DNA from: Spizellomyces punctatus DAOM BR117
Taxonomy: Eukaryota
Length of the DNA stretch: 64,000 nt
NCBI GenBank assembly: GCA_000182565.2
Contig: KQ257462.1
Direction: 5' to 3' (one strand)
Under the pieces are notes generated by a model, which saw nothing but the letters and a program-made list of their open reading frames with translations, made no database searches and was not told where the DNA came from. Position numbers and translations under genes: made by a program. Positions 4,279-49,866 of the stretch are shown here, one piece after another (the first letter of the stretch is position 1; each line of letters begins with the position of its first letter).

Positions 4279-4326
4279 ATGTGTGTGTGTGTGTTGTGTG
4301 TAGACATGTATGATGCTTGTGTGTGT
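4279..4326. repeat. Imperfect (TG)n microsatellite in the CYT1 3' region
   Basis: tgtgtgtgtgtgtgttgtgtg...tgtgtgtgt seen directly. Confidence 0.6.
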
Positions 4327-26900: not shown

Positions 26901-27293
26901 GCCAACATGCGGCCAAGCCCTAATGTGTTTGAGAAGCTTATCGTTGCGATGATTGATCAGGGCGATATGGTGACCGCGGAGAAGTTACGCCTGAGTATGG
27001 ACACCATTGGTCGTCATCCTACGTCGGAAACCGAGGCGGCCCTACAAGCAGGGTATCTCAAAAGAGGCGATCTGCTCTCTGCGCGACGGGTATTTGATGG
27101 AATGGCAAATCCAGTTTCGGAAACATCAATACCTCACCCGACGCGAACCAAGGAGTCATACCAGATGATAATAAACGCTGCCATCAAGGCAGGAAGAACG
27201 GATTTAGCGGCAGAGTACGTAGCACAAGCGAAAGGTAGTCCTTATGAGGCAGAATCTCCAGGGTGGGCGGAAAGCTTAGCGCTGGGGGCATAG
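23901..27293 (+). CDS. Pentatricopeptide-repeat (PPR) protein, probably mitochondrial
   Basis: Intronless 1130-aa ORF with an Arg-rich presequence and ~35-aa helical repeats (YAAMLHMHG, YVAVITAYG, YKAFIEALG, YNAVLRIMR, FNVMISGY, YELLITGL). Confidence 0.9.
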   Translation: MIRAGFGRAICHARRLSTIEIRALRHQPATPLLLDNHTLWKRKASTATQEASLAEGKERPLLDADIAQKIDVKADRDVTAEQAVPEEDWQQDNIALSLAETGAEKKVAAEGGKVIDDLLEDCAKDLKVATQRYLHLEESNRTADWTSVQYSHLINRVGNIPSQDLPTTVFDKVRQITRSRSIKLDEKAHLQMVRVYTAADIRRAQRYLAMESELEVERARITGEAPKSVQNRIQRLQKRMEACSSQAHADAAEELMQQAFDEGYRPRPSDYAAMLHMHGTRRNVASVEKWVQLLSERDVEIKLPIYVAVITAYGYLGDAYNAQKWFEKYVSTHGRRAEVYKAFIEALGRVGRAPLARDILERVMPEQKVQPTIDTYTAVSKVLGSSGDFVGAIEILGRMRADSVLAKGIEDAYSVILEQAILKGDYAVASDMFAHLKERRLPNFTYSQYGRLCIEQNHLDEALAVYRKIYSRSGMADPMFSGDLANSLIKAGRKSDAFRLLEIVHSASAKRKASSPGGDGNVFRLVPILMDAAKGDLKMLLRLQEIAESQGYYGSESKSPCGALLAAYQQKKDSVDLSIEDYRILYLSLFSSRKATSKDDLQKASFAFLKDMELKGLKPTEALSDLVISGFKGRYMVGAEIEWKKAMAKLDVKTPEISSEYASFITREEQQSLCRKIVSCCSSGNVAEALQIMEKLQKVNLFPDPFTVSRLILTLGSRGEFETVTQVFTKALERARTLRNLKVREHWEDSAFEAVIIAYTRAGYVSAAAKFFIESVTVLGRHPFAQKTYVWFFDTVGRSRGIANEDYADIYAVFEAYRDLVGAKTISLAVYNAVLRIMRKAGRYEHVVELARLMQEAEITLDPPTYQNLILSLIRSQRIDEAAKLFEKYLDEYWERMDITVFNVMISGYLAHDDFADALRVLKIAESADLRANVETYELLITGLARSEEYAGSALSLVHKMKESGLPVRPQVYESVILGTCSGKTKSLSVALQCYRAMEQANMRPSPNVFEKLIVAMIDQGDMVTAEKLRLSMDTIGRHPTSETEAALQAGYLKRGDLLSARRVFDGMANPVSETSIPHPTRTKESYQMIINAAIKAGRTDLAAEYVAQAKGSPYEAESPGWAESLALGA

Positions 27294-27480: not shown

Positions 27481-30400
27481 TTAATGAGGCGTTCGAATGA
27501 GATATACCAGAACTAGACCATCCACGGTTCCAACGACAATAGACCTTTGGTTGGCGCCAACCGCCAAGGAGGTAGGCTGACTGGCAAGCGGGACCATGGC
27601 ACATACTTCTCCGTTAGCCCTCGCTTGCCTAACAAAGTTCTTGCCATTATGATCAGGCTGACTATCCACCTCTGAAGCCAGCCCAATATCCCAAACCCTC
27701 ATTATGTGATCCGCTGCAATAGTGATAATATATCGGGGATTGTCCATAAAGCTCCATAAGACAATTCGACCTGATTCGTGACGAAGCGAACAATGCCTCC
27801 ATGGTTTATCTAGTCGCATGACAACGATAATGCCGACATCTTGGGAGGATGTGTGATTCACGATATCGCCTTGCTCCTCCATTTCTACAGCAGAGTATGC
27901 GAATAATTTCCCTAGCTTATGCGATCGGCACTCTTGTATCTGTATGTTATCTCCCTCTGAACCACCAGAAGACCAGATTTCGCCATTGACCCACACACTC
28001 GATGCAGAGCAGTAGATAATTTGATGCGAAGCGGACCAGCACAAATCTTGAACACGTTCTCCTTCCCAGGTTTCAAATGTCTGAAGATCGTGCCCGGTAT
28101 GCGGATCTACCATATAAACGCAATTTCCGTTTGCCATGGCTATTCGTGTGCCATCCGGAGAGAATAGGCGGGACGGCAGAGATGTGCAGTGACGCTGAAA
28201 GAGAGGTGTTTGGTGGTATGTTAGTGAACGGTCTGCTCGCCGGAGTAGTTGCCAAGCAGTAAATGTGTCGTGGACTCCCCAAGTGTACAAGCACAGACCA
28301 TGGTGCTCTGTTTTCAGACGGCTGAGGGTAACTCGACGGAGGCGACTTGAGTGTAGAATGCGCAGAGATTCTTTATGATTGTGAAGATCGAAGACAATGC
28401 CTAGATTCCCACAGGCACTTGCTATATAGTTTTCCATCTTTGAAACGTGGACAGAGTTTGGTTGGTCGGGTAACGTGGTTTGAGTAATAGGACGGACCTG
28501 GGTAAAGTTTGCATCGATAGACCAGATGATGTAGGTCTTGTCATTGGAAGATGATATCAAGCTTAAACCGCTATTGGCGCTATTGCCGCGAGTGAAGTCC
28601 AGATGCGAAACAGCCTTTGTGTGATGAGGATCGGACACAGACATGAGTGGCACGATCTTTCCTTCATTCTTCCAACTATGTGTGTTGCACACAAGCAGTT
28701 GGTTTTCACTCGATAAGAGAAACCGTTCCCTTCCCCGAGAGGTGGCGGTACACATGTTCGTTAAGCACGATGCACCTGTATTCACCCGCTTAATCCAGCG
28801 TCCCGTTTCGACCTCTGCGACGGTGATCACACCGAGCGGTGTTCCGCAGAAAAGCAGAGTTTCATCCGCGGAGAAACTGAGGCATTGGATGGGTGTGTCA
28901 GAGGGGGTGTGAATCAATGCGCATCGAGAGTGATTGTCAATTCGCCATATCATGATTCCACCGTCGATGCGCGTTACCGCCAATAAATCTCGCCCGAGGG
29001 AGAATGCTCCTACAGATGTTGCCGACGTAAGTTCCTCGTTGAACCGACATATTTCCCGCATCTTGACCGCGTTGAAGACAATAATGCCTTTATTTCGGCG
29101 CGAATACGTGGCTATCCTATGCCCGTCGATGGAGTGAGCGATAACTGCATCAGAGGTGCCTTTTGTTTGAGTAGGAGGCATATCCGCGTCCAACACACTC
29201 AACACGTCATCTCCACGATCTGATCGAGGTGCAGACTTATTGGGCGCTTCAGCATCGAAGTCGATGCACTCGAGCTGCGTGTGTTCACCGGATTGCCAGA
29301 TGCTCTCAAGACTCTCAGAGAAAAATATGGCCCCTCCCCTATAGGAAGATTCTACGAAGGCAATCATTTTGCCATTTGACAGGTTGTACAAGCAAATGTC
29401 CTTATTGCGTAAGGCAATGGCGACCCTTTCAGCACCATTCAGACTGAAGCAGCACGCAACAGCTGAAGCTGCCGGAAAGGGTGACTGAAGTAGCACTTCG
29501 GTCAACACGTAAGAATCGATGTCCCACGCTTTGACTGTGCCCTCGTCTGTCACGGTCAGGCAGCATCGTCCAATGGCTTTCTGTACTTGTACGGTAACTG
29601 CTATCAGCTTCGTAGCTTCCGTTGCCACTATAATGGACTCAGCATGTGATTCGGAAGGCGTAATACATTCGAGCAGGCTGTCGCCGTGCGCTCTGTTGTT
29701 GCGTGACCGAGCATCCTGTCGCACGCTAGGGCAGGCTCCTTTTGGGAGATTATAGGCCAACGTAAAACACATTTTGGGATATTGGCGAAGATAGTGCCCA
29801 TACGTCTCGACGAACAGGTTGTAGTCACCCAGTCGGGTAATCAGCTCATTGTCGCTCTCCGTCTGGGCTCGCTTGAGAACCTCTGCGATGAAGCCGACAA
29901 CCTCATATCCAACACCTGCAACAAACGCGCTTTCAATGAAACCCAGATTACAAAGTACTCGCGCAGTTTCATGAGGAGAAAATCCAGCCGTTAACTGATG
30001 GTGAACAATATCCACTGCCCGATGAGAGTCATACTTTCGCCACTGCTGCTGTCCAGCGGATACCGTTATGCAGGTAGATGCGTAAAACATTGCAAGAAGG
30101 CGATGCTGATGGGTCACGTCGGCTGAGCTTCTGATATATCGCTTTTTGATGGCCGTCGTGAACTCTTCGTGGAAAGGAATCAAATGCCCCGACTCTGTTT
30201 CGGCAAGAAGATCTTTCAGAGATTCATAAATGAGATTCCAGTCCAAGAATGGGAGTTTCAACAGCTCAATTATTTCGACTTCTCGTAGCCCCGAGCGAGA
30301 ACTGGCGATTGCAGTGAGCGTACCAGCAATGACATCTCGACCATGGATCTGCTCGAATTCGTTCAACATTTGGTCAAACATGGACGCAACGTCAACCGGT

Positions 30401-33400
30401 ATGTCCAGATTTGAGAAAGTGCGGCCAAATTCAGTGCGCTTGATTTTTTTGAGTAGCAATGCAAGATACAATGGCTTGGAAAGATTCATCTTGGCAAGAA
30501 TACTTTGAACCTGCCGGTGTTCCACATCTATGTTCATACGAAGGCATTGCATCCTCAGGATGTCCTTCTGCTCCTGATTAGTCAAACCTCCGAGTTTCCA
30601 GCTTTTCGTGTCAGGATGTCTCTTTCTTAGGGCAGGAAGGACCTTCTCGTCAGCAGCACTGAATAACCAGCGTACTCGCAACAGAGTTTGGTTATCGACA
30701 TCCGCAATGGATGGAAGCCAACTGAAATCATGCTGTTTTTTGCTTCCCAAAATGCTTAGGCGGTCGACCCCGTCCACAATGATAAGCACGTTTGTTCCTA
30801 GCTTGGCGACCTTCTTCAGCTTTGTGGCAAAACCTAATATATTCTGCTCCGAGGTACCGGTCCCAATATCAATCCTTTCTGCCTCCAAGTGTTTTGACAA
30901 TTGTGTTTGAAATCGTCGAAGCATTTGGCTGATGTCAAAGGATCCATACCACGTTCGCACAAAATTTGTCAAAACAAGAAAACCATTCGCTTGAAACTCG
31001 GAGCATATCTTGCCTAGAAGAGTAGTTTTTCCCATGCCGCTTTCGCCATGGAGGAGCAAGGTGTTCTCCATTGGTACCTCGCCCTCTGCCGCTGGATTGT
31101 TGTTTATTGATAGGAAGGCTCGGCGGACATGTTCCAGTACCTCTGATCGTCCAGAAAAATCGGTCAGATTGCTGACGGGAGCAATGGGCAGAGAACTGAA
31201 GTCTCGCAAGTCTATGCATTGTGCGATGTCTTTGGCTACTTGTAAACCCCAGACTTCCAGACCGCCCATTTTGACTCTTCGATCTTCGATCCGGGAGAAA
31301 TAGCTTTGATAAATGTGAACTGGACACCTGGACTCTGAAAGTTGCTGCTTCAGTTTCTCAACCCGTTCTATGGCTCTTGAGTTTTCTGGTTCGTACAGCG
31401 ATCGGAAGCTTTTTGGGACAGAGCGGGTGAAAGCGGCATCGCGGAAATAAAATATGAACGAACTATTCTGGACAGGTAGCTCTAGAGCACAGTCGATTTC
31501 AATTTCCCACAATTTTGAGTGCGCTTGCATCGTGCCCTGAACTTCAAGACTCCTGTCGGGAGAAGAATCGCCGAGTTTCGAGCCAATAATTGATAAGAAG
31601 ATGTCTGCACGTCGAATTTGCCATCTACTTGCTTGAACATAATCACTTTCACTAACACGGGCACTTGGGTGCCCAGCACGGAAATCCACGACGTGTAGCA
31701 GAATATGTTTGCGCAACATTTTATGTTGAAGCTGAGGTAGTATGTTACTGTAAAAATATTCTCGTTCGTTGTAAGTGTCTGGTGTGGAGCACAAGTAGAC
31801 AGTGACGTAGCGGGTAAAGGTGGGTGCACTGCCAGCGGAGGAGGCATGGAAAGAACTTTTCCCCCAATTCAGCTCGCTTAAATGCTCAAGATCGGCGATA
31901 CTGAACGGCTCCGAGGAACACAAGGCAGTCACGCCATGCAAATACAATTCTGAAGGAGAAACTCGCGTACGCAAGGATAGATCAGGTAGGCTATTATCCG
32001 GACTGTCCAGGTGTACGGCAGATGAGTCGCTGATCACCTGCGCAGGCACACTGATTTCATATTCACTCATCATATTGGTCGCTGGGGGTTCACCGGCTCC
32101 AGTAGTCAGGGGTCCTTCATTTTTCACATACAATCGCAATACCAACGGGGGAAGGATTGACGAGCACCCAAGAGCTATAGCTTCAATAGCTTCATTCTGG
32201 ATCCTTACGTTCCTTAACAGTAGATCTGTCAGTATGTACGAGGACTCGGAGAGAGTATCCTTCGCTTGCAGGCAGTTCATTTCGTTAGAGCCCACGTGGA
32301 ATTCTAGACAGCTTTTGACTCTCTCGAGTGGAACCGCATGCGTGTTACAATAACCCATCATGGCAGCATGCACCACTTGTGTCACTGATATGGGTAGCTT
32401 CACGCTGACGAACTGCAGTGGATTCGAGATGGTACATCCTGAGAGGAATTGTGCAGCAATTCCAAGCTCTTGAAAATATGATGAAATCTCGTACTCTAGA
32501 TGTTTGGGTGCCAAACACCATGAGTGGGGTATTCGACGAGCTGTCAGAATTTTCAAAATGTGCCGACTTTCGTACGTATCGCATCCACTAAGGATTGCAT
32601 CTAGCCCTTGTTTCACGCGGCGGAAGACAAGATTGTAGCGCCCCGCTTCTCTCAGTAAGAGTGTCCGTCCATTTTGAACTCTGGAGGCTGACTCATAAAG
32701 ATGGCGAACACTCGGCAGTCTAGGTAAGGTCCTCCAAAATCTTCCTATTTTACTTAGGAAGTCTTTATCCAGCATCGAAAGGGAAGAAAGGGAAGCTTCA
32801 CTGGCGTGTAGCGCAGGGCCGCATGGACAGTCGAGCAGCAGCTGCAGCTTCTCAGATACCCTCTTCCGTAGCCGCTGGCAATTGATCGTGCCTGCGCCGA
32901 TTTTTGAATCTAAGGACTCTTGCGCAGATAGGTGCTGATCATTGTCAAAGCTTTTCTCGAAGTTTTCATAGTTGACCACGTCGAGTTCTGATGGTTTAAC
33001 GTACTCATCCAAAATGGCAAGCACGGACGATCGGACGCTTTCTACGCGCTTCTTCTGATACCTAGGTGCCGCCTCCTTCAGATACACCGACTCCAATAGC
33101 AATGTTTCGGATATAGCCGGTGGTAAACCCCTGTTCCTGGCTTCTGCAATTATCGTGATCGATAGGTCAAAATCTACATCGTTAAAGTAAACGATTTTGG
33201 AGAACATCGTTTCGGGCCTTCTCGCTGTCACCACGAGCCCGACATGTCCATAAATGACGGAATAATATAAACGATCAACAGGGAGAGGTTGCTTGTTGTC
33301 GCGAACTATATAGTGCTTGCAGAAATGCTTTGCGAGGTGCCTGTTGTGAAGATGAGAGTAGTCCCAAATGAATGAGTTCGACCTTGCTCTTACCGAAATG

Positions 33401-36400
33401 ATAGATTTTTCTCGTGAAAGCAAACACGAACAAGGGTTGGCACATCCGCAGGGAGCCTTTCCTGTACAAACGCCGGGCAGAGGAACCACATCCGAAAGCT
33501 GGCAGCAGATTTCTGCACCATGTAAATTATAGCCTTCAATTGGCCAATCCAGTACGCATCGGCGTGAATAACCAGCCAATCTCCGTTTCCCGCAGCGTGA
33601 GAGACCTTGTCTTTCCACTTGTCACCTGCTTGCCATTAGCATACATGCTGCAAACGCAAATGAGATTAAACATACCACGCTTATCTTCTTCTGTCATTAT
33701 AGTTATCTGTATCTGTGTCCCTTCGTAATCTTCACAGCCCTGGACCACCAGACGATGTGTATCGGCCAATTCATCGGTCACAATCAGGACGATGGAATGG
33801 TTCCCTTGCAGACGCATGAACTGATCGCTACTACTGTCTTCTACAAGCAAGCCATAGCTCGTCAACATATTGACAAGGACTGGTTTTAGCATATCCGGAC
33901 GATTAATCCTGCATATTGAGTGTTAGTCACAGCAGTCATACGCCATCTCTACATAACACAGCACATGATGATACGTACAGGGTAGCGACAAATTTCTCCA
34001 TATTAGAGAGCCGACGACTCCAAACGTTGGTAGACGAAGTAGTTTCAAAAAAGTCATATGCAGCGCATTCTGCATTGTGTGTAGCAGTAGTCAGGAATTC
34101 ATGCAAATCTGGCCAGCTGTCCAATTGAGAAAGAATAGTGGTCTGCAACGGTGTTCATAAAATCATTAGCGTCCACTTAATTTGCGACATGTCGCTGGTT
34201 GCATACCGTATTTAACTCTTCTGACTGGTTTTCATTCAAATACACCAAGACCTTTTCGAGAAGATTGACCTCGTTTCGGCTCACTAGACCCCGACGACGA
34301 GCATTCACAGTTGCTAGCACAAAGTGTACCGGTATTCGGTCCTCTTCCCGCAGCATATCATTGACCTTGATCATTAGCTGTAGAGTGAGTGCATTTGCTA
34401 CCTTATTGACCGCGGAATCGCTAAGCGCAGAAACTTTCAGGGTCGAGACTTCATTTCGTAGACAGTCATTGAAAATTTGGGTGAAGACCTGGTCATCGGT
34501 GGCATACAAACTATTGAGTAGCTTTATACGCTTGAACGCAGTATGGAGCTCACACCCGAATGTGGCCAGGCTCATGAATGGTTTATACTGGGGCAAAATA
34601 TCTGACTTGAATGCTTTGTATGCCTCGGTCATCGATTCAACAAGATAACCTTCACGTTGAAATAAAATGATATCGTGCATGAGATCCTCGCTGTCGGTAA
34701 TACTGCAGGTTTCCATCATGGTTATGCATGCGTCGAAAGAACTTTCGCTCGTGTGCTTCTTGGAGGATAGCTTCGCCTCTACGGATCTCAGTAAGAATTA
34801 ATGGTAAACGTGCATAGGTAGAATCAATATTCATTAACTTACGCATGCTTTTCCGCTGCTGACTGAAGCTTGGTGTGGCATTGCTCATGATAAAGTCAAA
34901 GAGTAGGCTTTGGAGGGTCGTCCCACAGTGCGTAAAATTTACGACCTGAAATTTATCGAGCATTGGTTCATTTGCCACGCCAGCATCTGCAAATACGACC
35001 AGCGGAGATCGTTGGGTAATGCTCGTTCGTAACTCCTTCAGCCTCTCCTGCTGAAATTTCAAAATCTCTCTGCCCAACTCCTTGCTAGTAAGGCCTTCTA
35101 TCCAAATTGGCTTCCAGCTTCCCTTTAGCCTGTTTAGCTGTTCTACAAAATCCGGGCGTCGTGCGTCCAAACGATCCGGTTCGCTTCCTTCAGATGTTAG
35201 GTATCCATACTGCTCCAGTATCAGTTTGGCTAAACCATTCGGGTCGATAAGCCATTTGTCACGTTTTGTTGCATGCATCAAGGTCAGATTTTGTCGAACA
35301 ATCTTGACTTTAAAGAGAGCTGAATTGGCTGGCATTCTTGTATCTTTCGTTAGGGGAATATTGGCAGCATGCCCATTGATATGTCGCTTGATGAGATGTC
35401 GCCATACGTCCTCGAGCTCAACCCTTTTTTCATCCGATAACGGGCCGAAATAGGCAAGAAGCCCACTGCGCATGAGCGTATTTGCCAGTAACAATTCTTT
35501 ACGGCTGCCGAGAGCATCAATACGGCTTTGGATTTTCTTTGACAGCTGTTGCAAAGACTTGATGAAGCGATCTTGGAACTGCAAATACTTTCCTGTTTTT
35601 TTGCCATCATGGAAGGCACAGGTGGCTTGGAACATCTCGGCAAGAAGCGTGAAGATGGATTCAGAAGCCCTTGAACGTTCGGTGACTGGGGGGTCCCACA
35701 GATGCAAGGGTTCTCGTACAGTACCAGGAATATTGACATCTACAGTAATAAGAGCTACCCCTCGCAATTGGCTCGGTTGCTTCCGAAATCGTTCTATTGT
35801 CGGATGTAGGAGACCAGCCTTACGAGCGCGAATCATAATCAACTCATGAACCTCTTTAGAGGGAAAGACCAAACCTGTCGCCGCTCGCAAGGCAATAAAT
35901 GCTTTGCGATGCCGAAGAGGTGAATGCTTTGCACCAGCCTGTTTTACTGGTAGGACCACATCCGCGCCGGAGGTTCCGTACTCTGCGAGGTATTCGGAGA
36001 ACGCCCTTTCTGCGGCAATAAACACATCATTGGTGACTTCCAGCTGAATGACGTTGTCCCATTGATTCGCGGATTGCCTTCCGTTTCGACTTAGTTGTAC
36101 ATATTCTGGCAATCGTTTCAGAAAAGCGGTCAACTTAGCATAGGCCCTAGAGGAATAAGGATAAGGGGGTAATTAGGTGGCCTTAAACCGACGCGATCCT
36201 ACTTGATTCCAAGAAGTCCCCCCATATTCGTTTTCACGGAAGACTCGATCAGGTTTATTCGCTTTTCGATTTGGTTTGCCAAAGTGAAATAGAACACTTT
36301 CCAATCCATGTCTTTAGGATAAACAAATGTGACTCCCCATCCGCGGCGATACGACATCCATTTCCAAAACTCTTCATCTGCCAATAAATCCGCCCACTTT

Positions 36401-39400
36401 CGGTTGACAGAGGATCCACGAGCAAGGGTTTTGCAGTCGATGAACGAAAGCACCTTCAATCCCAGCTGGCACGGAAGCTCCCCTACTATATCCACGTATA
36501 GGCGATTAACCTGACGTACAGCTATTGCACGCAAGCATATAAGGTTTTCTCCCTCTAAGCCGCTTTGTATCAAGTCCTTCACCCTCAGGTCGCCGATTTT
36601 GACATTTGCGATTTCTCGCAAGAACAACGTGGGATTCCGCATCACCCACTTCGAAAGTAGGGAGAAGTCCGCATTCCATCCTACGAGTGCGCAACCAACT
36701 TTGATAATTTTCGTCAGCAACGGGTTTGGGTTAGAGGCTGTAAGATGGAGCTTCATTAGGGTGAGATCCGCAATTTCCAGCCGTCGACGAATATCCTGTC
36801 AGATGAATTGGTATTGGTAAATCCCACGATCAGCTGAGAAACGCCGTCGCGGAAGAATTCATGCCTTAATGGTGTTCACAATGACTTCAAATGACCAAAA
36901 CTCTGCTCTTCCCGCGTATGCTGCAGACCATTTCTCGTCAAACACCGCCTTTTTCTGCTTCACAACTTCTTCGGCTTCACGAAGCGAAATCATTATCCGT
37001 TGATGCTTTGCTTTGAAGGAGCGGATTGCAGGAAGTATGTTAGACACCGTTATTGCGGCACGTGAGGCAACAAAAGGCGTAATTGCAGTGGAAGCTGCCA
37101 CGTTTTTATCTGATCATTTGAGATATGCGAGGATGAGTGAGAAAATAGTAGCAAGCAACATACGCGACAAATGCTGATACCGTATAGAACTGGACGATGG
37201 TAACCAAAGGCATTTGTTGGCTGCTTCATTGGAACCGGTAGCGTTTCAATGCTACAAGATCGTAGCTAGGAGAAGGCGTATATAGGTGAAATCACATGAG
37301 ACCTTTAGCCGCAAAGTATAAGATAAGCACCTTGTCGTAAACTACAGTTGGTGTCGAGTGCGCTGGTAGCTGCAATAAATCCAGCAACGAGGCTCTCGCT
37401 TGCAACACGTAGGGATTGTCCGCAGGTTCCAGTAATTCTTCAATATCTTCCATCTTGAGAGACTCGAACAGATCGCGAATCGCTTTCAATTGCTTTTGTC
37501 CTTCTTCAACATCCGACGCCAATCTTTCTCTTAAAGTTTTAAGTTCATATAGCGCCGCCTGATAATCACTGTGAGCAGCGGCGACCTTAGGATTTTCAAA
37601 GACAGGAGTATCATCCTCGCAGTGGAACGCTTGCTGCATCCATTGACTTTCCGAGATGTGATCAGCATGTCCGGGCTCGTGAGCATCGAAGATGCTAGTT
37701 GGAGAGAAGATTTCGTGAAGGAGAGCAATGCGACCAACCAGCTCACGTTTAGTGCTAGCAAGAATGGAATATTGCCGTTGGAGGTTGGCACATTCTCCGG
37801 TAGATTCTATAAGCTTATCGCGAGATTTTGATAGCCGAATGTGAGCATTTGCTGACCCTACGACACGTTTTGCAGTATTCAACCGGCTCTGGGATTGCTC
37901 TTCTTTGATCCGTCGTACCTCACGAGAGGAAGAATAGAGCGTTTGAATCCATGCACATAGCTCGCGTGCAGCAATCCCGACTACCGCACACCGGTCGGGT
38001 CTGAAAGTCGGTTCCTCCATGATTTTCTTGAGTTTATCGAGTACCGCCTCCGGAAGTGTATCGGCCGTCAGAGATGAGATGCGGAATATAAAAGAATGAC
38101 TTGCAATGACTTTTCGGGCTTCCGTCCACGACTGTGGCTTATCGAACAGAATGCAGATGGCGCTGGCAAGAAACTGAACAGGAGGTGGTGGATCTGTCTC
38201 AGCTTTCAATTCCTCAAAAGCATCCTTGCGAAGAGCCTGCAGGCGCCGTATGCTTTGTTCCAAATTCTGCCGTGCAGCGGCTAGGCACGCATCCGCAGCA
38301 TCTTGTTGTTTTTGGCGCCACTGTCGGTCTATGCTTTCTTCGTCGCTCTTTAGTTCCTTTCGCAATTTTTCTACATCCATTTGTTTTTCTTTAAGCTGCT
38401 TCGTGACCACATTTAGTTGTGCCATTGTCGATTCCAGCAATGCTGGGAGATTCTGAAGTTGGCTTCGTGTGTTGTCGACAATCGTTTTCACCACTTCCCG
38501 TGCGTCACCAACTTTTTTCAAACACCGGCGGAACTTCTGATTCTGAGAAATAAGTTCGTTTTTGGTATTCATATAATATTCTGAGACGTGTTCAAGGAAT
38601 TTTTCGTAGCCATTGATCGGCATTGATTTCAAGAAAGGATGTGACCCGCATTGGATTGCATGAATTACCGCGAGGAACATCTGCGCTGTGCATGTGCTTA
38701 GGGATTCGGCAGAGGTGGACTCATCATTAACAGCCTCCAAGAGCCCTGAGTCTGCGAAATAGTTTTGTGCCAGCGTTCGTAGGGATGTTTCATTATAGTC
38801 ATAGTAGATATCGATTGTCAGGCTCGAGATAATTTTGGGATATTCGGCTGTCAAAGCACATCAGTCGAATGGAACAAGTATCGCATGCTATACGAAAAAG
38901 CAAAAATCGCATACCCAGCTGATCCAGGACCATTAGATTTGCCATATCCACGCATACGACTATCTTCAAGTTTGTTAATGTTCTCTCGTTAAGTTCTCTC
39001 TCAACATCCAACGCGCTCAAAGCTTTTCTATTCTCCCCTTTTACCAACCCAAGAACCGCTCCCCGCGATATCTTTCCTCTCTCATCCCGCTCCGTCTGCT
39101 TGGCCTGATGTGCAATTTTGCTCAACATATCGTCGTACTCTCCCGATGTCCATAACTGGACCGATCTGCCGCGATCAAGAAGAGCATTCAGATCCCCCAA
39201 AAAAGTAGGATTGAGCGCGCATTCTGCCGGGAGAAAAATTCCGACAACAATTTTTTGGAGCGAAATGGCGGCGTCGATGATTTGCTTCCGAATGAAGAGG
39301 CGCCAAGTAGGAGTATCAACTGGGCCGATTATATTGTACTCTCGGAATCGATATCCTCGCATTGCAGAGGCTTGTTTTGCGAGGTCTTTTTGCACATCGT

Positions 39401-42400
39401 GGAGACAATGCCCAATTAGGAGCGCACTTGGATATTGATCATCGCCCAAAACCCTGTCCAGCCTACAGAAATGATCGATAGCTCCAGGATACAAGGTAAT
39501 GTCTCTCTTTACGAGTCCTTTTGCATCTCCCTGAGTGGTGAATATAGATATGGCTTCCTTAATAAGTTTCTCGCTGACCCCGCGGTAGGCTGTTCGATCC
39601 ATGTATGCTGCTTGGGTGAGCGATACGGTGGACTGCCTTATTGATGGTGAGAAGCCGAGCGTAAAAATAGATCGGTTTGTGTCGCGTTCATTGGGACGCA
39701 CAGCCATCGTTGTCATATCGGAATACAGATATGACAAGCTGGATGACGGTGCTGTCTGGTGAAAGTATTGCAGACAGACACGACCGACGATATCGTGGTA
39801 TATCGAGGTGTCGCTAGGGCTTATTCGATCCTATGAAAAGGTCATTATAAGCTCACAGGAATGGGCTTCCAGGCAAGGATAATTACTCACCAAATAGACT
39901 CTGTCAACCTCAAAGCACCATGCAGTCATCAGCGACTTGCTACTCATCCACTCTTCCTCACTAATTTTCATCAAGCCCCTTAGAACTTTAGCTGCATCTG
40001 AGGGCACAAAAATCCTTATTCCTGATCGTAGTATTCTCATTTTAATCAAGTGGTGACACCGGAGGGTTGCATCAATGACCATGTCGACTTTGTTCCCACG
40101 ATGATGCATACATTCCAGAAACGATCCTCGCATTTCGCAGTACGCATCCGCATCATGGAACCTGAACACAATAAAATGACGCGCAAGACGATGCGTTGGG
40201 GCTTCCAAATCAGAGCATCCGAGGATCGAGATGCGTCTTACAGCTCTAAAAGTTGTAGCGTTGCTCCAGTATCCACCCATATCCGGAAAGGAGCGCCAAA
40301 ACTCAGCTACCGGAGATGGTGAAGAAGGCCGCGCGGCCATAGGTATATGTAAATCGTCAACAAAAAGGGTCAACGTTTTATTATTGGGGGGAACGTACGC
40401 CGCGGTTGCTTCATCTCTTACAAGGGTTTTATGCAACTGAGCGTGAAATTCCTCTGGAGTGGATGTTGGATGGAGCATGTGTGTATGAATGATAGTCTTC
40501 TGCTCTGGTAGGTTGGCGAGAGTGCGTTCCGCAGCAAAGGTTTTGCCGGCACTCGGGCCACCGGTAAACAGAACGCTTTTGTGGTGCTGAAGGAGCGTAC
40601 TGGCGAGGTTCCTAATGTGGGAAATGACACTATGTGTGGGCGATGGTGTCCATGATCCAGTGACAGTGTTGAACACCAGCAGGAACAGACTGGGACCTTC
40701 GTGATGACTATGGAGTACGGCCCAGAGCTGACTGGAAGATTGGTTGTCTTCCAGCAGTCTATATATAGTGGCTTCAAATCCTTTCCGATGCTCCACATCG
40801 ACGGCCAACCCGAATGACCACACTACAGCGTACCAGAAGGCGTCTTCAATTACTGCTTGACAATCTTTCTCGAGACAAGCTTCCCCTAAGAGACACTGTA
40901 AGATTCCCAGAAAACTACTAACGGATGATTGAAGATCCATTCCCCGGAGACGGCAAATCTCATCCAAAGAGGATACTAATTCCTTCATATAGATGCCAAA
41001 GATAGCCTTTAAAGTGCATTGAAGCGCTGTAGCGAGCGGCGAGAACTTAGGATCTTTCGGTATCTGGTATATCCATTCGGAAACGCAGACCTCCCACGTC
41101 CACTTGGTTTTCACATGCACGAGACTGAATCGCGAAATAAATCCAGCTGAGACGTTATGGATATCTTCGGCTTCCCATATGAGGGTTACATTCTGGGACA
41201 ACATTAGCCTTTTCCCTGTGCTTAAGCACAGTGCGCTTGGGTGCATCAACGAGGCGACCGCCTCGGTCCAGGAGGAGGAGTACGGGCCGTCGAGATGAAT
41301 CCACGCGGGATTAGGGCTTGAAGCGAGATCTTCTAAAATACCTTTTGTGAACCCCGTTTGGGATGGGGATCCAAAGAGAAGAGCCGAGGAAAGTGCAGTT
41401 GGATTGATCGTGTATAATGGCATGGAATTGAAACGAGAAGCTGCGCGGATTGTCGTCGTTTTACCAGTTTGTGGCGCTCCAAGGACGAGAACGTGGGTGC
41501 CTGGTATGGATGTTGCAGTGAGGAGACCGCTGATGGCATTTTTCAGATGCATATGCAAAGGATCACAGTCGGGAGTTACGATATCATTGCGGATATTGCA
41601 AGGGGGGCCTGTGGATATGGCCTCGAAGGTTGATCCAAAAACGGCTCCCAAAACGTCCCTCAATATACCAACTTCTTCTCCGACCGCCTTCAGCAGTCCC
41701 CACTCCCATAAACACTTCGCAACAACTTCGAGCTCAGCAAAATTGTCTCTCATCCGCTCCATATACCGGCAAACAGATATTACACTTCTCACGGATCCCA
41801 TTCGTACGCCCAGCCCCTCGCACCCCCGCCAGAAGGCGGCAACTTTTGCGGCACAGCTTTCTGCATCCTTGAACCCCGCATTCCGTAGCAATACGGCGGT
41901 AACAATTTCAACTCCAGGTAAACGTAATGCAATCGGTACCATCCGATTCCGCACCGTACCCCTAAACAGATCATCGTCCATCTTCTCTGACGTTGCAAAA
42001 CATCTTACATGCACGACCGGCGGTAATTTCATCACTCTTCCCAGAAACGATACAGAAGAAAGTTCCTTTCGTGAGGATGCAGCTGTTAGTTCCCTAACCG
42101 CTTCTAGACCCGCCAAGCAAACGCCCAAAGAATCCTGGCTTAATCTGTCCAATTGCCGGAAGACAAGAAAACATCCTGTCAGGACCATCCCCGTCAACAG
42201 CCTCCGCATGACCGCACTTGAGACTGCCGGAGAACAGCAGCATACGACCGCAAATCGACCAAGAATTTGCGTAAATTCGAGGAGAAGGGTCGTTTTCCCT
42301 GTATCAGGTGGACCGTGCGATAAGATTCCATGATTGGAAATTAATCCAGGCCAGAGGTTAGTGAATGTTCTGGACGAAATACCCAGAGCCACACGGGCAG

Positions 42401-45400
42401 TGGGCGGAATGTATTCGAAGCCGTACGAGGCATGGTAAAGATCTTGAGAGATAGTCACGGTCACTTCGTCTTCGTCGTAGTGATATTTGAGCGCATTCAG
42501 CCATTCCAGCGACGTTTTCATATTTTCCGTTGTGCGTTGGGCATTTAAAAGGCATTGAATCCAGTCACGATGAGATAGGGTAAGGGTCAGAAGAATTTTG
42601 GCTAACTTGTCTGATCGGGTAGTTAGCTTCCTGATTTTGTCCAAGGTTTGCGACAATAGGGTGTCCAATCCGCCTTTGATGCCCAAACTATTTTCAACCT
42701 CGAGCGTCCGTCGTACTTGGTGGGCTAAAACTCGAATTTGTTCAGGAACATCCTCACCGTCCTCGTCGCTATTTTTGTTTCTTAAAACGGTGAATATTAT
42801 CTCCTTGAGAGTGGATTGAATCTGCGTCTCAATCTTGGAAAGCAATTCTTCGATGCTCAGATGGGAAGTGCTGATGAAATTACGAAAAATCAGAGCTTCG
42901 CTTGTCCCGGATGTGGTGGATCGAATGCCGGTTATTTTGTGGTCCTGCGCTGCTGAGGCGGAGGACTGATGGATAAGAGAGGTAAAATAAAAGTATCTAA
43001 CATAACAGGTGGGATATTGTTAGTTCATAGATAGATAACGTTTGGCCCATCTCGTCGTAGGAACGTACTTTGACAAATATCCATTCAACTCTTTGGGTTC
43101 TCTCTTAACCTTAACCAGCTCCAGCAGTTCCTCATCAGCGCCAAAAAACAATCGCGGAAACCCAATCCGCTTTCCATCTAACCACCCTTGAACATCCTCA
43201 ACCAGAGATCCCAGAACGCCCCTCATCTCCGTCAATCCCTCGGCCAGATCTGGCGCAGCGTCCACCAATGCTTTCATTCCCAAGTTCTTCTCAGCCTTTG
43301 CTAGGAGGGCGCGGTAAGTAGTTTCAACGGCTCTATATCGTTTGGTTTCCAATGGAAGCGCCAGCTGAACCTCCGTAGCATTAAAGAAAGAATGGGTCGA
43401 GAGAAGAAGTGGCTGAGTTTTGGACCATTCAGTAAGAGATTTGAGAGCTCTTTGAAGGTCGTTTTGGAGCGCTGTAAATTGGTCAACGTAATGTTCAATT
43501 CCTGGCTCAGATGACCCTTCCAACAGCAGCTCAACCGACAGCAAGTCCGATTCAATAACGCCGATAAGCCTCTCAAAACGGCTGATAACTGACAGGCCCG
43601 TTGCCTCATCCCGCATAATCTGGATGGAAAGCTGGGCAAACCGGTTTTGTATCTCAGAGAGCGTGCTCGAGAGAGACTGTTCTTGCTCTGCTTCTTGGAG
43701 AATTTCCAAGAGGTCTTCATATGTCAGCCCTAGATTTCGCCGTCCGATGGTTTTAGTGACAAGGGAAAGAGGTGTGGTGGTGATGTCAAAATCGGCCAAG
43801 CCCAGAGCGTTGCGAACGGAATCCCAATGCCAACTACGGAATGAATCATAAGTAAGGACTTCCACAATAGGGTATTCCGTCTCAAGAAATGCTGCTATTT
43901 CTTTCGCAGCGTGCTGCGCGATAGGTGGGTGCGCAATGCCCGTTGGTGTAAAAACTTCTAGTAGTTCCGCACAGCGCTTCCGAATCTCGGATGCATGAAT
44001 ATTACAGATTGGCTCATATCGCCAGCGGTCAAGATCTTCTCGATATTGCAGTAAACATGTGACCAAAACTCTACGAATGTGCATTGATGTATGTAGGTTT
44101 TGCAGTTGCGACAGTCGTTGAGTATCATCAATACACGAAGCTTTGCGGATGATGACGGCTGCGATATCAAGCGCATTTACTATGTGCTTGGAGATAGGTG
44201 TGAGAGACTTGAGCGTAATTGTGGTGGGATGATTCTGTGCTCTGGCGTCCTCATGCTCGTCATCTTCCGTCCTATCCTCCTCTTCTTCCTGTTCCTCGTT
44301 ATCCGAACCACTGCTGCTTGTAGCGTCACCGATTGGTGTGGTCAGTACCTTATCCAAAGCAGCCTCCACCTCATCCCACAATTCAACTATCATACACATT
44401 TCCTTCTCCACAACGGCGCTCAGTCGTTCAATGGCTTCACTCACTGCTTGTTTTCTCAATGCAGCAAACTCGGTCAAACGGTCATACATGGTGTAGGCGT
44501 CGTAGAAGCGCGTCACCAACTCATCATCTACAGCCCACTGTCGTTCGTCCAGAAACGATTTGAGTGACTTTACAAAGCTAGTTTGGCCTTGCAGAAGAGG
44601 AAGAGCAGCATCTAGAGACTGCAGAGATACGGACGCAGATTTTGTTTGATCAAAGTTGCCGGGGGGTGGGTGCGTGGTATACGTCGTGTACACATCATGG
44701 ATTTCCTGTACTTTACGGTCCAAGAGTCCTTCCAGATTGGTGAAAATCCTTCGTCGGGTCTTCGAAACCCATTCCTTGATCTCGCTCTGGAAGTTTTCAC
44801 TGAATACAGCAAACATCCCACGCGGAGTTACCTTTGCAAGACCAGCACAGTGTTTCTCAACAATGGATATGTCCCGCAATTGGGCATCGCACTTATTTAA
44901 GATATTTTCGGCCGGGTTGGCGATATCAACATCTAGCACTGACACATGCGAGGCCGAACGAACTCGCGGCAGTATTGCAGCCGACAGCCAGTTCACGAAA
45001 TCACGACATGAGTCAATCCCTTCGTCAATCATTTCAGAGCAAAGCTCCTTCAAGAATACGTGGTCCTCGGGCGTCGGTATGTACGGCCCAGTAGGGAATT
45101 TGCATGAAATTGGGGTGAGCATGCAGGACAATGATTTGTTGAGAGCAGATTTCCACGATTCAAAGTCAGTGCTGAAAGTAATACTATAGTCGGCGTTCCA
45201 GTCAAAGATGAGGTCAACTCGGATGCGTATGGCCCCTTGATGGAACGACTTATATATATCGGTTATCTTTGTTCGGAAGATGGGCATAATGGTCGATTTT
45301 GCGATGACAGCGACAAAGAATTTGAGAAGGGAGCGGGCAGTCTCAGCATCTTGTGCCTCCATAGTTGATAACATCGTTTCCGCTGAGTCCCTGGGTTCTA

Positions 45401-47687
45401 CCTGATGCGCTCGAAAAGCCGTAGTTACCGCTGCTGATAGTACATTACCAATGTGCTCCGAAACAGTTTGTACGAATTCCCCATGTATGTGTGCGCATGC
45501 TTCAACAAATTCTTTGGGGGTAAAGAAGATACACCTCGTGTTGAGATCCTCAGAATCGTACGGGATTTCTCCACGTCGCAGGACATCACTAATACCATCC
45601 TTCAATAATCTCTGACACTCGTTTCGCAAGCAGAACACGGCATCGGTGCATTTCTGCCGATAAAACTCAATGCGCGGATATAGCAGTGCTGCTAAACGTG
45701 CTACTTGACCTTTCACGGAGGACGTGACGCGGATCCGCTCATCTTGCCAGTGTAATTCTGAGAGTGTTGGAATAGTGAGGGGCTGAGGAAGGAACCTTTG
45801 CAAGTGACCGCTACAAAGAAGGGCAGCTTCGATCTGAGATCTTGTGTAATCATTCTGAATTTCGGCCCTAAGATTAATGAGAACCTCCGGTGCAAATGTA
45901 AGAGATTCATCTTCCTCTTCTTCGGTCTCCCCGGCGTGATCCCCCTTGCCAATGGTAGTACCACATATGAACTTGGTCCACTGTCTTCTTTCTTTCCTTC
46001 TCTTCCTTAGCTCATCAGCTAGTAATCGCTCAGACGCCCTCACTGGCGCATTGGCTATATAATCTTTCAGAAAGGGCCGTGCGATTGCAACACATTGGCG
46101 AAGCGCAAGACGATATTCAAACTCAACACGGATGGCATGGGCATGTAAAAGTTTCTGATGGTGGGCATTTGGCGTTTCGTGAGGTAGCAGGATGTCGGCA
46201 CGAGTAAGTTGCGTTGGCGGATTGCGGCGTTCTGGAAGGGGTTCTTCCCATTTGATAGTATATCTGTTGTCAGTCGGATCATAGGAGAGGACAGTACATG
46301 GATGCCAGGCAATGGCAGGCGCCAATGCAGGGTCGGGCGTATCAGGGCCACTTGGAGCTTGAATACCTGGAGCTCGGCCCTTGGTGCGGACACCGGCTTT
46401 GTCCAATTGGGTCGAGAGAGGATCAACTAGTTGCTGCTGAGCGTCTTCGTGGTCCATAAAGAAATCTATTGGGAACGTGTGTCCAAGACGTCTCCCAGGC
46501 CTAGAAATGGGGCGGTCGGGGAGTGATGTATAATGCCGGTCGATATCCTTCTGTTCTGTCAACAGAATCGAAGGTATGTGAGGCACTTCGTCGCCCAGCC
46601 ATTGTATTACATCTGCAGGAGTAGGTCTACCATCGTTGATGTGCTCCTCCTCCCTCTCTTCCCCTCTCATTTTTGGCATACTGACACCTCGATACCCTTC
46701 CATTCTTGCCTCTATTCTAGATGGCGACGGAGTCAGCCGTTTAGAAAATCGTCCAAGTTTAGGCAGCGGGTATTGTTTCGCAATATGACTGACCATGACA
46801 TGCCCATCCTCTTCATCAAAGTAGTAAGATGGAATGCGATGGAGCCCAAGCTGAGGTGGTAGGCGAACGTATACTTTCGGGCCCGCCGTGCCACCAGTAG
46901 TACCGATGGGGACCAGAGCATGGTCTGCGGCAGGTGCCAGATGCCTGTCTGAATGCTGTACAGTTGCTGGATCCGGAACTACCGATGGTGCAGTCCATGC
47001 AGTCCGAAAGATATCCGCTATTACTTTAAAGAACAAGGATTTTGTCTCTCTGGAGAGAGGCCGGCTCTTTCTTGGCAAGAAGAGATCATCAAGAGGTTCG
47101 CCGCCCATCATTGTAGCTCGACGAGCAGAGATAATTCTTCGGCCCCTGTCGCCATGGAGAACAGATTCCGCTGATGCGGAACCCAATCGGCGACCCGTGG
47201 CTGCAGAGGGCGGTCTGAGAAAAACCAGCTCATCCAGTTCTCGAAATGCGTTTAATCTTGTTTTCTGTTCCTGAGATAGATCAGCGGTACGTGGGCGAAT
47301 GATCCGATTTGATGAGGAAGGAGTCGCAAAGCAATCCGATGTCAAATCATCGGATTCGTCAATGAGATGGATAGGAGGTCCATAGTGGACATTGGACGTC
47401 AGGTCAAACGAGACTTTTGATGATCTTTGGGGATAGTCAAACCTCCCTTTACCCAAACCACGCTCTTTTCCAAAAAAGAGCTCCAGAAAGCGTTCTTCTG
47501 CTTGCTCCCAGCGGGATCCTGCTTCATCATCATTTTGGGTTTGATTTTGTTCATCGCCTGAAACTGATTGGATCTTTGTATATGGCGGCTGCAAGGTATT
47601 GATGTCGTCCTTATTAAAATCATCCATAGGAAGAGAATCATGCTTCCTTTCTGGCTCACTGAGGCAAGCCCCATCAGGAGGTTGCAT
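27481..47687 (-). CDS. Giant (~6,480 aa) fusion: degenerate axonemal-type dynein heavy chain with an internal F-box, followed by a DUF4062-like domain, NACHT NTPase and WD40 repeats
   Basis: 13 exons: 47687-43069, 42996-39891, 39830-38915, 38847-37331, 37265-37181, 37109-36865, 36795-36203, 36146-34843, 34778-34207, 34142-33979, 33908-33676, 33625-33394, 33340-27481. They total 19,446 nt (divisible by 3) and the junctions are phase-compatible. Dynein motifs: KRIGFPRLFF, YGFEYI, GPPDTGKT, WIHLDGP, FVDDLHIP, EVDRVYLDRI, PPPPV, WLIDPNG, GDWLVI..FRMWF. NACHT motifs: GESGMGKT and IIVDGVD. Confidence 0.8.
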
Positions 47688-48683
47688 ATTCTGTTATCCA
47701 GAGTCGCGATCCTTCCCTCCGCTTGCTGACTTTGCAAAACGCGTTCGCCTTGTGAGTCAGTCCAAGCCACTCACATGTGATGTGGCAAAGGCAAAAAGAA
47801 CCTTTAGCGCGTTTCTCCAAGAAATACGCTGTTAAGAATCGAACCCTCGAAATGATGACAAAGCAGCAAAGATCAGCGATAATGCAAGGGACACCATCGC
47901 ATGTCTTCCATCCCATGTTGATGATCTTGTTTATCAGTTAGAGATGGACGATTATTATCTTGGGGCTAGCTGCGAAAACTTTGAACTCGTCCACGATCTT
48001 GCCTGTAACGGGATCTCTTTGGCACGCTGCAGCAAGGAGAAAAGCACGACAAGGATGACGGCATTTGCCTATCTCTTGGCTTTGCCTCCTTTCAACCCCC
48101 CAGCTCCAACATTCCACGGGGTGATCGGTGTCCCTGAGTGGTCTCCGGCCCTGATCTCAACGCGCAGCATCTGCTGTGATGCTACATAGCCTCTTTCGGC
48201 AATCCCAATGCGCGAACAGTCCGCGCTGTCAAGGAGGATTACGTTTCCACCATGCTGATAGGAGAGATGGCAAATACAATGCCTCCGTGGTCAGCATCAT
48301 TTTTATACATCTAGCCAGCAAGAATGGAGAATTTGTGAAAGAGGTGTGGGGAACACACTATCCAATCAGGACGGATCAAGATTGTAGATCCATGTGCGGA
48401 CACTGAAAACATGGTCGTTGATTAGAAGGCAAGGGTGCTTGATCTTGCAAATACTTGATCAAGTGGTATTACCAGCGAGTCCAGCACAAATTATACATCT
48501 TCCAAAAACACTTGGAATGTCCAATCGTTATATATGGCCCTGAAGAATGCTATGGGCCACGGGTGGGGATATAAATAACCCAACAAATTCAATCCCCCAT
48601 TTATCAGCCAGAAATAGCTTCTTCAAAGTTATTGCAAGTAGTTCTGAACCTCATCCTCCCCATTCCTTTGCCGTGTTCTCGCC

Positions 48684-49866
48684 ATGCATCTCCTCTCGTC
48701 CATCGCGCCAATCTTCCTACTTGCCACATTAGCATCGGCAAAGCCGGTACCGCGATCGGACCAAGTCGTTCGGTGTACCCTCACCTCCGATGCGCAGATC
48801 GCCCACATAAAGGCATCTCACCTTGATGTCTGGTCCCACAGCCTTGGTCTCAACCACCCTGCAGACATTCGGGTTTCTGCTACCGAAAGAGCCCAACTGG
48901 AGGCCACAGGGGCAAAATGTGATGTCTTTATCGACGATCTTGCTCCTCTTCTTGAAGCAGAACAGCAACCTCATCTGGCAATTCGACAAGGACCAAGTGC
49001 GCTGGCCGCTGACCCGTACTTCTCAAGCTATAAGCCTTACTCTCAGATCGTCGACAAAGTCAAAGCATGGGCGCAAGCTTATCCTGACCGCGTCAAGTAC
49101 TTGGGCAGCATCGGCGCGTCAACAGAGGGTAGAGAAATTCCCGCGTTCAAGATTACGAATAACAAGATTCCAAGTTCTTCCAAAAAGAGCATCTACTTCA
49201 ACGGAGGAATCCACGCCCGCGAATGGATTTCCTCCGCGACGGTGATGTACGTTGCCAATGCGCTCATCACATCCACTGACCCCCAGCTCTCCGACTTCCT
49301 CGACAAGGTCGAGTTTTACATCACCCCGATATCTAACCCAGACGGATACGAATATAGCCGTACGCAGGACAGGTATTGGCGGAAGAACAGAGGCAGCAAC
49401 TCGAACTCAAACTGCGTAGGTGTGGATCTCAATCGTAACTGGGACGAACATTTCGGAGTTGTGGGCGTAGATTCCAACCCATGTTCCGAAACTTACAATG
49501 GTCCATCTGCGTTCTCGGAACCGGAAACCAAAGCTCTCTCCAAATTTATCCTCTCACTTCCCAACCGTATCGCTGGAATTGACTGGCATTCATATGGCCA
49601 GTACATCCTCCGTCCATGGGGATGGACAACAACAAAGAGCAAGAATGAAGCCCTCTACAAGGCCCTCGGTGATGGTGTTCGTGACGCTATCGCAACGTTC
49701 AACGGAAACCGATATAGCTCAATCACCGGAGCAGAACTGTATCCTGCTTCAGGGGCCACGGATGACTGGATGACCGCCAAAGCTAAAATGACCGGTTTTA
49801 CGATCGAGTTGAGAGACACGGGTCGGTATGGCTTTCTCCTGCCAGCCAGCCAGATTGTCCAACCGA
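48684..49866 (+). CDS. Secreted zinc metallocarboxypeptidase (M14A), 3' end lost in an assembly gap
   Basis: Signal peptide and prodomain, then GGIHAREW (HxxE), WRKNR, GVDLNRNW, DWHSYGQ, LYPASG and TIELR. No introns in the visible part. Confidence 0.95.

Follow-up and report, generated by a model that had tools for sequence, protein, structure and literature searches.

The window analysed here is a stretch of 64,000 nucleotides (nt) from contig KQ257462.1 of Spizellomyces punctatus DAOM BR117 (GenBank assembly GCA_000182565.2). Positions 27481 to 47687 of its minus strand very probably hold a single 13-exon gene for a class-10 dynein heavy chain that would act as a nucleotide-sensitive scaffold docked on microtubules or on the axoneme, and not as a motor. 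The predicted protein runs from an N-terminal tail through the linker, AAA1 to AAA4 and a stalk with its microtubule-binding domain (MTBD) to an insert carrying an F-box, and then through AAA5, AAA6 and the dynein C-terminal domain to a DUF4062-like domain, a NACHT NTPase and WD40 propellers. This succession of dynein, F-box, DUF4062-like, NACHT and WD40 parts had been proposed in an earlier, sequence-only reading of the window, and the structure of the open reading frames (ORFs), Pfam matches, PDB and fold searches and collinear orthologues all support it.

The fusion as such belongs to a family that has been described, as the gene fits the published description of class 10; what appears to be new is annotation: the F-box and STAND modules are given their names, and AAA1 is seen to have lost Walker B. 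The sequence-only reading had not recognised the architecture from the literature, which holds for the identities of the F-box and the DUF4062-like/NACHT parts, apparently unreported, but not for the fusion, described in 2016 as class 10. The two 'unique' parts of that class can now be given names, the one being an F-box in the stalk and the other a TEP1-like STAND NTPase tail with WD40 sensor propellers. Together with the loss of Walker B in AAA1, this makes of what had been an unexplained 'divergent axonemal dynein' a testable hypothesis, namely that flagellated fungi have a regulated ubiquitin-ligase scaffold docked on microtubules; Spizellomyces is a convenient test organism for it.

Domain order and probable membership of class 10

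The features of the gene are listed below from its 5' to its 3' end (E, E-value; aa, amino acids).

27481-47687, minus strand: whole coding region, 13 exons and 12 introns, 6,481 codons plus stop
44118-47687, minus strand: N-terminal tail, ~aa 1-1190, in exon 1, 17-35% conserved outside the genus
43069-44105, minus strand: linker, Pfam DHC_N2 E 2e-37, 129.5 bits against a cutoff of 31.9
41457-42425, minus strand: AAA1, Pfam AAA_6 E 5.6e-21
42314-42291, minus strand: AAA1 P-loop GPPDTGKT, aligning to GPAGTGKT of DNAH9
40158-40616, minus strand: AAA3, Pfam AAA_7 E 2.9e-21, Walker A GGPSAGKT and Walker B DD kept
39081-39503, minus strand: AAA4, Pfam AAA_8 E 1.4e-10, P-loop degenerate or lost
37769-38350, minus strand: stalk coiled coil 1 and MTBD, Pfam MT E 8.1e-11
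35588-37846, minus strand: insert of ~660 aa (model aa 3215-3880, exons 4-8, four introns), common to all orthologues
36352-36480, minus strand: F-box in exon 7 (36795-36203), Pfam F-box-like E 1.6e-7, 31.4 bits against a cutoff of 24.3
34207-35587, minus strand: AAA5 with its extension, preceded by the end of coiled coil 2, exons 8-9, found by family profiles
33007-34142, minus strand: AAA6, exons 10-12 and the start of 13, including 33625-33394, family profile E 5.8e-4 (weak)
32017-33006, minus strand: dynein C-terminal domain in the last exon, family profile E 6.5e-8 to the extreme C-termini of canonical dyneins
31240-31818, minus strand: DUF4062-like alpha/beta domain, phmmer match to TEP1 chain 11gz_A, E 2.2e-4
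30553-31062, minus strand: NACHT NTPase, Pfam NACHT 33.2 bits against a cutoff of 26.7
27502-29565, minus strand: WD40 beta-propellers, ~690 aa (P0001 residues 1353-2040), best propeller-family E 2.7e-19

With six AAA+ modules in canonical order, a linker, a stalk with MTBD and a C-terminal domain, the predicted product is by its sequence a dynein heavy chain. Its best solved relatives are axonemal dyneins, both for the linker (best E 4.1e-17, with single-headed inner-arm dyneins closest) and for AAA1-AAA3 (DNAH9, 3.4e-42; DNAH2, 3.6e-42; cytoplasmic dynein-1, ~1e-24). The AAA lid is matched as well (Pfam Dynein_AAA_lid, E 1.1e-8), and AAA2 retains its P-loop in the orthologue alignment. Profiles of the family, built from six orthologues and run against 120 canonical dyneins (Z=1e6), match these at the AAA5 positions, with E 5.9e-10 for the end of coiled coil 2 plus AAA5 and 3e-6 for the AAA5 extension. 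Pfam scans of the single AAA5 exons gave 0 families, and a single-sequence search with the 506-aa exon gave a weak match to residues 3120-3197 of DNAH1 (E 0.59). No Pfam or PDB match was obtained with the first 1,190 residues. Of the Pfam families that the sequence-only reading had led us to expect, DHC_N2, AAA_6, AAA_7, AAA_8, MT, F-box-like, NACHT and WD40 were matched, but DUF4062 was not.

Kollmar (2016, Mol Biol Evol 33:3249; PMC5100056) defined 17 classes of dynein heavy chains, of which class 10 is described as belonging to Chytridiomycota and Neocallimastigomycota and as marked by a long stretch near AAA5 that is unique to it and by a WD40 tail of 1,500 aa at the C-terminus; Spizellomyces punctatus is named in the legend of the architecture figure. 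Judged by the match of its sequence to this description, the gene is probably a member of class 10. It shares the long unique region near AAA5 (here ~660 aa) and the WD40 tail (here ~1,510 aa), and its motor and tail meet inside a single exon. It differs from the account in PMC5100056 in two respects. There, one exon is said to hold everything from AAA5 to the C-terminus in every class-10 gene, an argument used against an annotation artefact, but the present gene has five introns from AAA5 up to its last exon; and the unique region is placed 'where usually AAA5 is found', but in this gene a detectable AAA5 follows the insert.

The terms 'NACHT', 'F-box' and 'P-loop' have 0 occurrences in the main text of Kollmar 2016 (PMC5100056), and our full-text literature searches returned no description of NACHT, F-box or DUF4062 modules in a chytrid dynein. 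The nearest approach was a figure legend in a ctenophore genome paper, which lists DHC_N among the domains found with NACHT. Class-10 dynein is not mentioned in a 2026 atlas of fungal flagellar proteins.

Motor parts, and a proposed ligase adaptor and switch

As far as its sequence tells, the protein is probably not a conventional motor, because AAA1 has lost Walker B; its P-loop is kept. The D-E of the canonical Walker B motif, which the alignment to DNAH9 shows directly, is R-Q in the window protein (cfdefnr of DNAH9 against lvfrqldr) and R-N, Q-N, T-H or D-K in the orthologue rows of the six-row alignment. Both acidic residues are lost from the window protein and from most orthologues, and the glutamate is lost from all of them; a hydrolytic AAA1 site consisting of Walker A and Walker B D-E is not present. 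In the lineage of Clydaea and Lobulomyces the AAA1 P-loop is degenerate (GDYASGKK). The conserved tip of the stalk would bind microtubules, and nucleotide would be bound without a power-stroke cycle driven by AAA1.

The insert interrupts stalk coiled coil 2, parting the portion near the MTBD from the end near AAA5. About 75 residues of returning coiled coil stand between the MTBD and the insert, and the profile of the insert had no match in the 120 canonical dyneins. The F-box within it was examined in five orthologue segments, Borealophlyctis and Clydaea being left out of the alignment as their gene models skip part of the stretch. All five segments match Pfam F-box-like (best E 2.1e-10) and four of the five match Pfam F-box; the core residues are conserved in 5/5. 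When the profile of the five segments was compared with solved structures, 40 sequences were found at E <=1, nearly all of them F-box proteins, with the best between 3.1e-9 and 5.6e-8 (FBXW8 at 3.1e-9, then beta-TrCP, GID2, Cdc4 and FBXW7, and weakly Skp2). Because the core positions of the F-box are conserved, the simplest reading is that it would recruit Skp1, and possibly a cullin ligase, to the stalk, and so bring Skp1 (SCF-type ubiquitin-ligase core) beside the microtubule surface.

A model of the stalk was made with AlphaFold from residues 2962-3954 of an orthologue (91% identical) and a 6-row alignment (mean pLDDT 58, pTM 0.28). It is confident over the first ~300 residues alone, and with this part Foldseek recovered 5ayh (TMt 0.53), 8i3j (TMt 0.48), 6rzb_C (TMt 0.76, root-mean-square deviation 3.0) and 3wuq. 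Two stretches look MTBD-like by eye, and a duplication of the MTBD inside the insert was considered and rejected as unsupported (hhalign E 0.02, probability 2%). The strongest short conserved motif of the insert, ISESQWIQQAFH (model aa ~3290-3330, window ~37620-37500), is nearly invariant across five orders and matched no known family in the searches made.

Beyond the end of the dynein C-terminal domain, at about model aa 4970, lie ~1,510 aa. They begin with a poorly conserved post-motor linker (pLDDT <50), after which ~1,440 residues remain. Pfam DUF4062 has no match in the window protein at E <=0.01; the DUF4062-like domain has a weak Pfam NPHP3 match (4e-4), aligns to relatives that bear Pfam DUF4062, and is modelled by AlphaFold with a pLDDT of ~90. 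In the NACHT domain of the window protein, Walker A is GESGMGKT and Walker B IIVDGVDR. The corresponding patterns, GxxGxGK[TS] and DG[VIL]D, are kept in orthologues outside the Lobulomycetales, Walker B being degenerate in Clydaea and Lobulomyces. Walker A is found in 5/6 rows and Walker B in 4/6. Clydaea and Lobulomyces can be counted as one lineage because their proteins are >90% identical (same 90% cluster); with the two merged, the counts are 5/5 and 4/5, the latter being all minus that lineage.

An AlphaFold model of the tail from 45 rows has a pLDDT of ~90 over residues 510-1200 (mean 75.4, pTM 0.61). In this model the fold is the STAND arrangement of nucleotide-binding domain, helical domain and winged helix, and Foldseek matched it to Apaf-1 (TMt 0.52), MalT (TMt 0.66), RPP1, Avs3, NLRP9, NOD2 and NLRC4. 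The WD40 region matches many Pfam propeller families (ANAPC4_WD40 with 31 bits against a cutoff of 22.9).

Relatives of the tail were sought in an exhaustive HMMER search with a 1,200-residue query across the dynein-STAND junction, of which the best 150 of 2,292 matches were listed. Among these, the nearest non-dynein relatives (E to 1e-45) align from their own N-termini and carry names such as 'DUF4062 domain-containing protein' and 'telomerase protein component 1'; one has Pfam DUF4062 at 1.2e-14, and another (P0020) has TROVE and TEP1 propellers. TROVE has no Pfam match in any exon of the gene under study. Since it is without TROVE and does not reach Pfam DUF4062, the tail is TEP1-like rather than the tail of a TEP1 orthologue. 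The STAND module is proposed to be a ligand- and NTP-dependent switch or an oligomerisation device, read through the WD40 propellers, because such modules work so elsewhere.

The sequence-only reading had envisaged a dynein-derived scaffold, anchored to microtubules or the axoneme, that would bear both an NLR-like switch and an adaptor for a ubiquitin ligase; this is plausible. The apparent restriction of the gene to flagellated fungi, together with the argument on dynein tails made by Kollmar, suggests a role related to the zoospore or flagellum. A more specific proposal can be made, although we think it unlikely: the protein may be a microtubule- or axoneme-docked SCF adaptor, gated by NACHT-WD40, that serves the proteasome-dependent dismantling of the internalised axoneme after encystment. 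If true, a dynein would have been converted from a motor to a regulated ligase scaffold. The axoneme of chytrids is internalised at encystment and degraded partly via the proteasome (Venard et al. 2020, cited by PMC11772885 and PMC8887899). An F-box protein docked on microtubules would be a candidate for the factor that targets the axoneme to this degradation.

It seems quite unlikely that the protein is instead a functional motor of the axoneme, with a WD40 tail that takes the place of an intermediate chain in docking and with NACHT and F-box parts that have no switch or ligase function. The closest PDB similarity is indeed to axonemal dyneins, the linker and stalk/MTBD are the best-conserved regions (50-52% against Phlyctochytrium), and the AAA3 motifs are intact. 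The glutamate of AAA1 Walker B is nevertheless missing from every orthologue, and Kollmar detected no homology between intermediate chains and the WD40 region (PMC5100056). The conservation of both added modules (NACHT Walker A in 5/6 and Walker B in 4/6 rows, F-box core in 5/5) also stands against this motor, as it argues for a retained function of the modules.

One gene or several

A chain of minus-strand ORFs in changing frames, long ones in a stop-to-stop list, fills positions 27481-47693. The spliced coding sequence starts with the ATG at 47687, finishes with the stop codon whose last base is 27481, and is 19,446 nt long with 0 internal stops. The sequence-only reading had predicted a minus-strand gene of ~6,480 aa whose ORFs are joined by 12 introns of 50-72 nt; all of its coordinates agree with the 6,481-codon frame rebuilt here, and the 12 introns of the present model yield an uninterrupted frame. 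This intron model was made from short GT-AG or GC-AG candidates, and its junctions were checked in the raw sequence and by comparison with P0004, an orthologue. Its splice sites are phase-compatible, as had been claimed, but one of the 12 introns is GC-AG instead of GT-AG.

47687-43069, minus strand: exon 1
43068-42997, minus strand: intron, 72 nt
39890-39831, minus strand: intron, 60 nt
38914-38848, minus strand: intron, 67 nt
37330-37266, minus strand: intron, 65 nt
37180-37110, minus strand: intron, 71 nt
36864-36796, minus strand: GC-AG intron, 69 nt
36202-36147, minus strand: intron, 56 nt
34842-34779, minus strand: intron, 64 nt
34206-34143, minus strand: intron, 64 nt
33978-33909, minus strand: intron, 70 nt
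33675-33626, minus strand: intron, 50 nt
33625-33394, minus strand: small exon, splicing into the last exon
33393-33341, minus strand: intron, 53 nt
33340-27481, minus strand: last exon, 5,860 nt, open throughout

All 12 introns are required, as nine of them shift the frame and the remaining three, whose lengths are multiples of three, hold in-frame stops. For the GC-AG intron, an alternative GT donor at 36879 would remove the residues VNTIK. As P0004 has these residues and all orthologues conserve them in type, the GC donor at 36864, which keeps them, was chosen. The peptides EVDRVYL/DRI and QL/AEYPKIISS (slashes mark the junctions), which the sequence-only reading had seen as dynein motifs restored by splicing, both recur in P0004, from Spizellomyces sp. 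'palustris'. The hidden exon at 33625-33394 splices straight into the 5.9-kb last exon as it had proposed, and the dynein C-terminal part and the DUF4062-like, NACHT and WD40 regions follow one another there without a stop, in a single open exon of 5,860 nt.

Linkage of the two halves in other chytrids, which the same reading had put forward as a check, is found in collinear orthologues from five orders of Chytridiomycetes. In blastp, the spliced model aligns to P0004 with 91% identity over residues 1-6481 on both sides and to P0005 with 39% identity (58-6477 against 48-6417), and it is collinear with the remaining orthologues too. The alignment of the product with P0004 and P0005 over its whole length excludes chance. 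The full-length collinear proteins have 6,161-6,766 aa. The following proteins match across the junction or in the tail, with identities, where given, from the junction search.

P0004: Spizellomyces sp. 'palustris', 6,481 aa, 89% identity
P0005: Phlyctochytrium arcticum, 6,419 aa, 36% identity, E 2e-209
P0006: Borealophlyctis nickersoniae, 6,579 aa, 30% identity, E 1.2e-131
P0009: Gorgonomyces haynaldii, 6,161 aa
P0014: Clydaea vesicula, 4,812 aa
P0154: Lobulomyces angularis, 6,766 aa, from the same set

Among the best 150 of 2,292 matches, those named that have the full architecture are all from Chytridiomycetes, with no Neocallimastigomycota among them. A further search with the dynein-STAND junction, confined to proteins of 3,582-5,000 aa and so blind to the orthologues of ~6,400 aa, found nothing. 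In Clydaea the orthologue is divided between models, and the adjoining model P0155 holds its N-terminal tail, fused to an inositol-phosphatase-like protein. The gene of B. dendrobatidis is split or merged differently by annotation, and three fragments of it (1,876, 2,081 and 3,611 aa) all cross from the dynein into the STAND part; one of them, P0007, has Pfam Dynein_C (E 1.9e-21) followed by a STAND P-loop and WD40 propellers. Identity between the window protein and that of Phlyctochytrium is 24-52% per region (F-box 47%, NACHT 39%, WD40 42%), so that the F-box, NACHT and WD40 modules are conserved as well as the AAA modules. This even conservation across domains argues for selection on the whole protein.

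It might still be supposed that prediction alone has fused two or three neighbours on the same strand: a dynein cut short, a protein with an F-box and one with NACHT and WD40 parts. RNA reads across the junctions are lacking, automated annotation of B. dendrobatidis and Clydaea has separate models of 1,160-3,611 aa, and two donors are weak (GTGCTT and GTATCA) in addition to the GC donor. Such a join is nonetheless highly improbable. AAA5, AAA6 and the C-terminal domain follow the F-box exon in dynein order, which places the F-box inside the motor and not between genes, and the C-terminal domain and STAND tail share one stop-free exon. The gaps between ORFs within the gene are 50-72 nt, too short to hold both a terminator and a promoter, against real intergenic spacers of ~190 and ~960 nt to the flanking genes. 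The split models of B. dendrobatidis still bridge the dynein-STAND junction, and Kollmar came to the same one-gene conclusion (PMC5100056). With orthologue predictions from several pipelines and taxa and an open last exon, the reading as two genes is very unlikely.

A non-functional, decaying 'ghost' dynein gene is hardly credible: the motor is highly divergent (Pfam E only 1e-10 to 1e-21, with far higher scores for canonical dyneins), neither Walker B of AAA1 nor the P-loop of AAA4 survives and RNA coverage is very low, but a frame of 6,481 codons that depends on 12 exact splices is intact, full-length collinear orthologues with all domains similarly conserved occur in five orders, and PMC5100056 argues against ghost genes for the new dynein classes.

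Several observations weigh against a single gene for a docked scaffold that is not a motor. The sole RNA run with raw reads, which bears the same species label (X7, of which ~6% was read), yielded 104 short reads at the locus and no junction; they fall into identity classes of 48/15/41, with 48/104 at >=99% identity, and reach a depth of <=0.56. Two further runs, X8 and X9, gave 0 reads matching the locus, and another, X1, was taken as genomic-like DNA because its contigs continue through the introns. The orthologues are themselves gene predictions, and several genomes split or merge the gene. In the window protein, the Pfam match of AAA6 to Dynein_heavy (E 0.007) is under the cutoff, as is that of the C-terminal domain to Dynein_C (E 0.0027, 17.4 bits against a cutoff of 25.7). 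In the stalk model, the insert and F-box have mostly pLDDT <50. The loss of AAA1 Walker B argues against motor activity without proving its absence. As for axonemal docking, PMC5100056 states in general that the new classes have tails which can be aligned to known classes; this was not reproduced here, the family tail profile having found no canonical dynein tail among the 120. Since that profile found nothing, axonemal docking rests on Kollmar's general statement and on the phyletic pattern.

Related systems and neighbouring genes

The gene product has the same order of linker, AAA1-AAA6, stalk/MTBD and C-terminal domain as the axonemal dyneins DNAH9 and DNAH2 and the inner-arm dyneins DNAH1, DNAH7 and DNAH12. 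Unlike them, it is without AAA1 Walker B and the AAA4 P-loop, adds the 660-aa F-box insert and the 1,510-aa STAND-WD40 tail, and has an N-terminal tail without detectable similarity. With TEP1/NWD1-type STAND proteins it shares the order DUF4062-like, NACHT and WD40, but it has no TROVE, leaves Pfam DUF4062 unmatched and carries the module as an appendage of a dynein and not as a free-standing protein. The canonical F-box motif, LPxxLxxxILxxLDxxxLxxxxxVxxxW, is common to it and to the SCF adaptors FBXW8, beta-TrCP and Cdc4/FBXW7; in the dynein, however, the F-box sits in the stalk, ~2,200 residues upstream of the WD40 region, and not directly N-terminal to it. RNF213 (mysterin), a giant dynein-like E3 ligase with six AAA modules, offers an analogy only. 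It is not known to be homologous to dynein heavy chains, with their linker, stalk and MTBD, and has an E3 module of its own and no F-box.

The flanking and more distant genes of the window are as follows.

23880-27293, plus strand: convergent PPR-repeat gene, 1,137 codons, PPR_2 E 5.1e-29, PPR_long E 3.2e-14
48648-49866, plus strand: divergent zinc carboxypeptidase gene, Peptidase_M14 E 3.8e-87, ~960 nt away
21570-23702, plus strand: DUF3336 ORFs (E 3e-40), in which a patatin-like phospholipase is matched weakly and under the cutoff (E 9.7e-5)
7394-9727, minus strand: ORF with a Cid1-family poly(A) polymerase-associated domain, PAP_assoc E 2.5e-19

The PPR ORF ends at 27293, ~190 nt from the stop of the dynein gene. 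Homologues of it in B. dendrobatidis (1,160 aa, E 8e-40) adjoin the 3' part of the dynein gene, and one annotated protein of that species, P0162 (3,611 aa), merges the PPR gene with this 3' part. As B. dendrobatidis shows the same neighbourhood, the adjacency of PPR and dynein genes seems to be conserved between orders. On the other side, the Peptidase_M14 gene is cut by the only assembly gap of the window (100 N, 49867-49966), which lies outside the dynein gene. The ORFs at 21570-23702 are probably one intron-split gene for a patatin-domain lipase.

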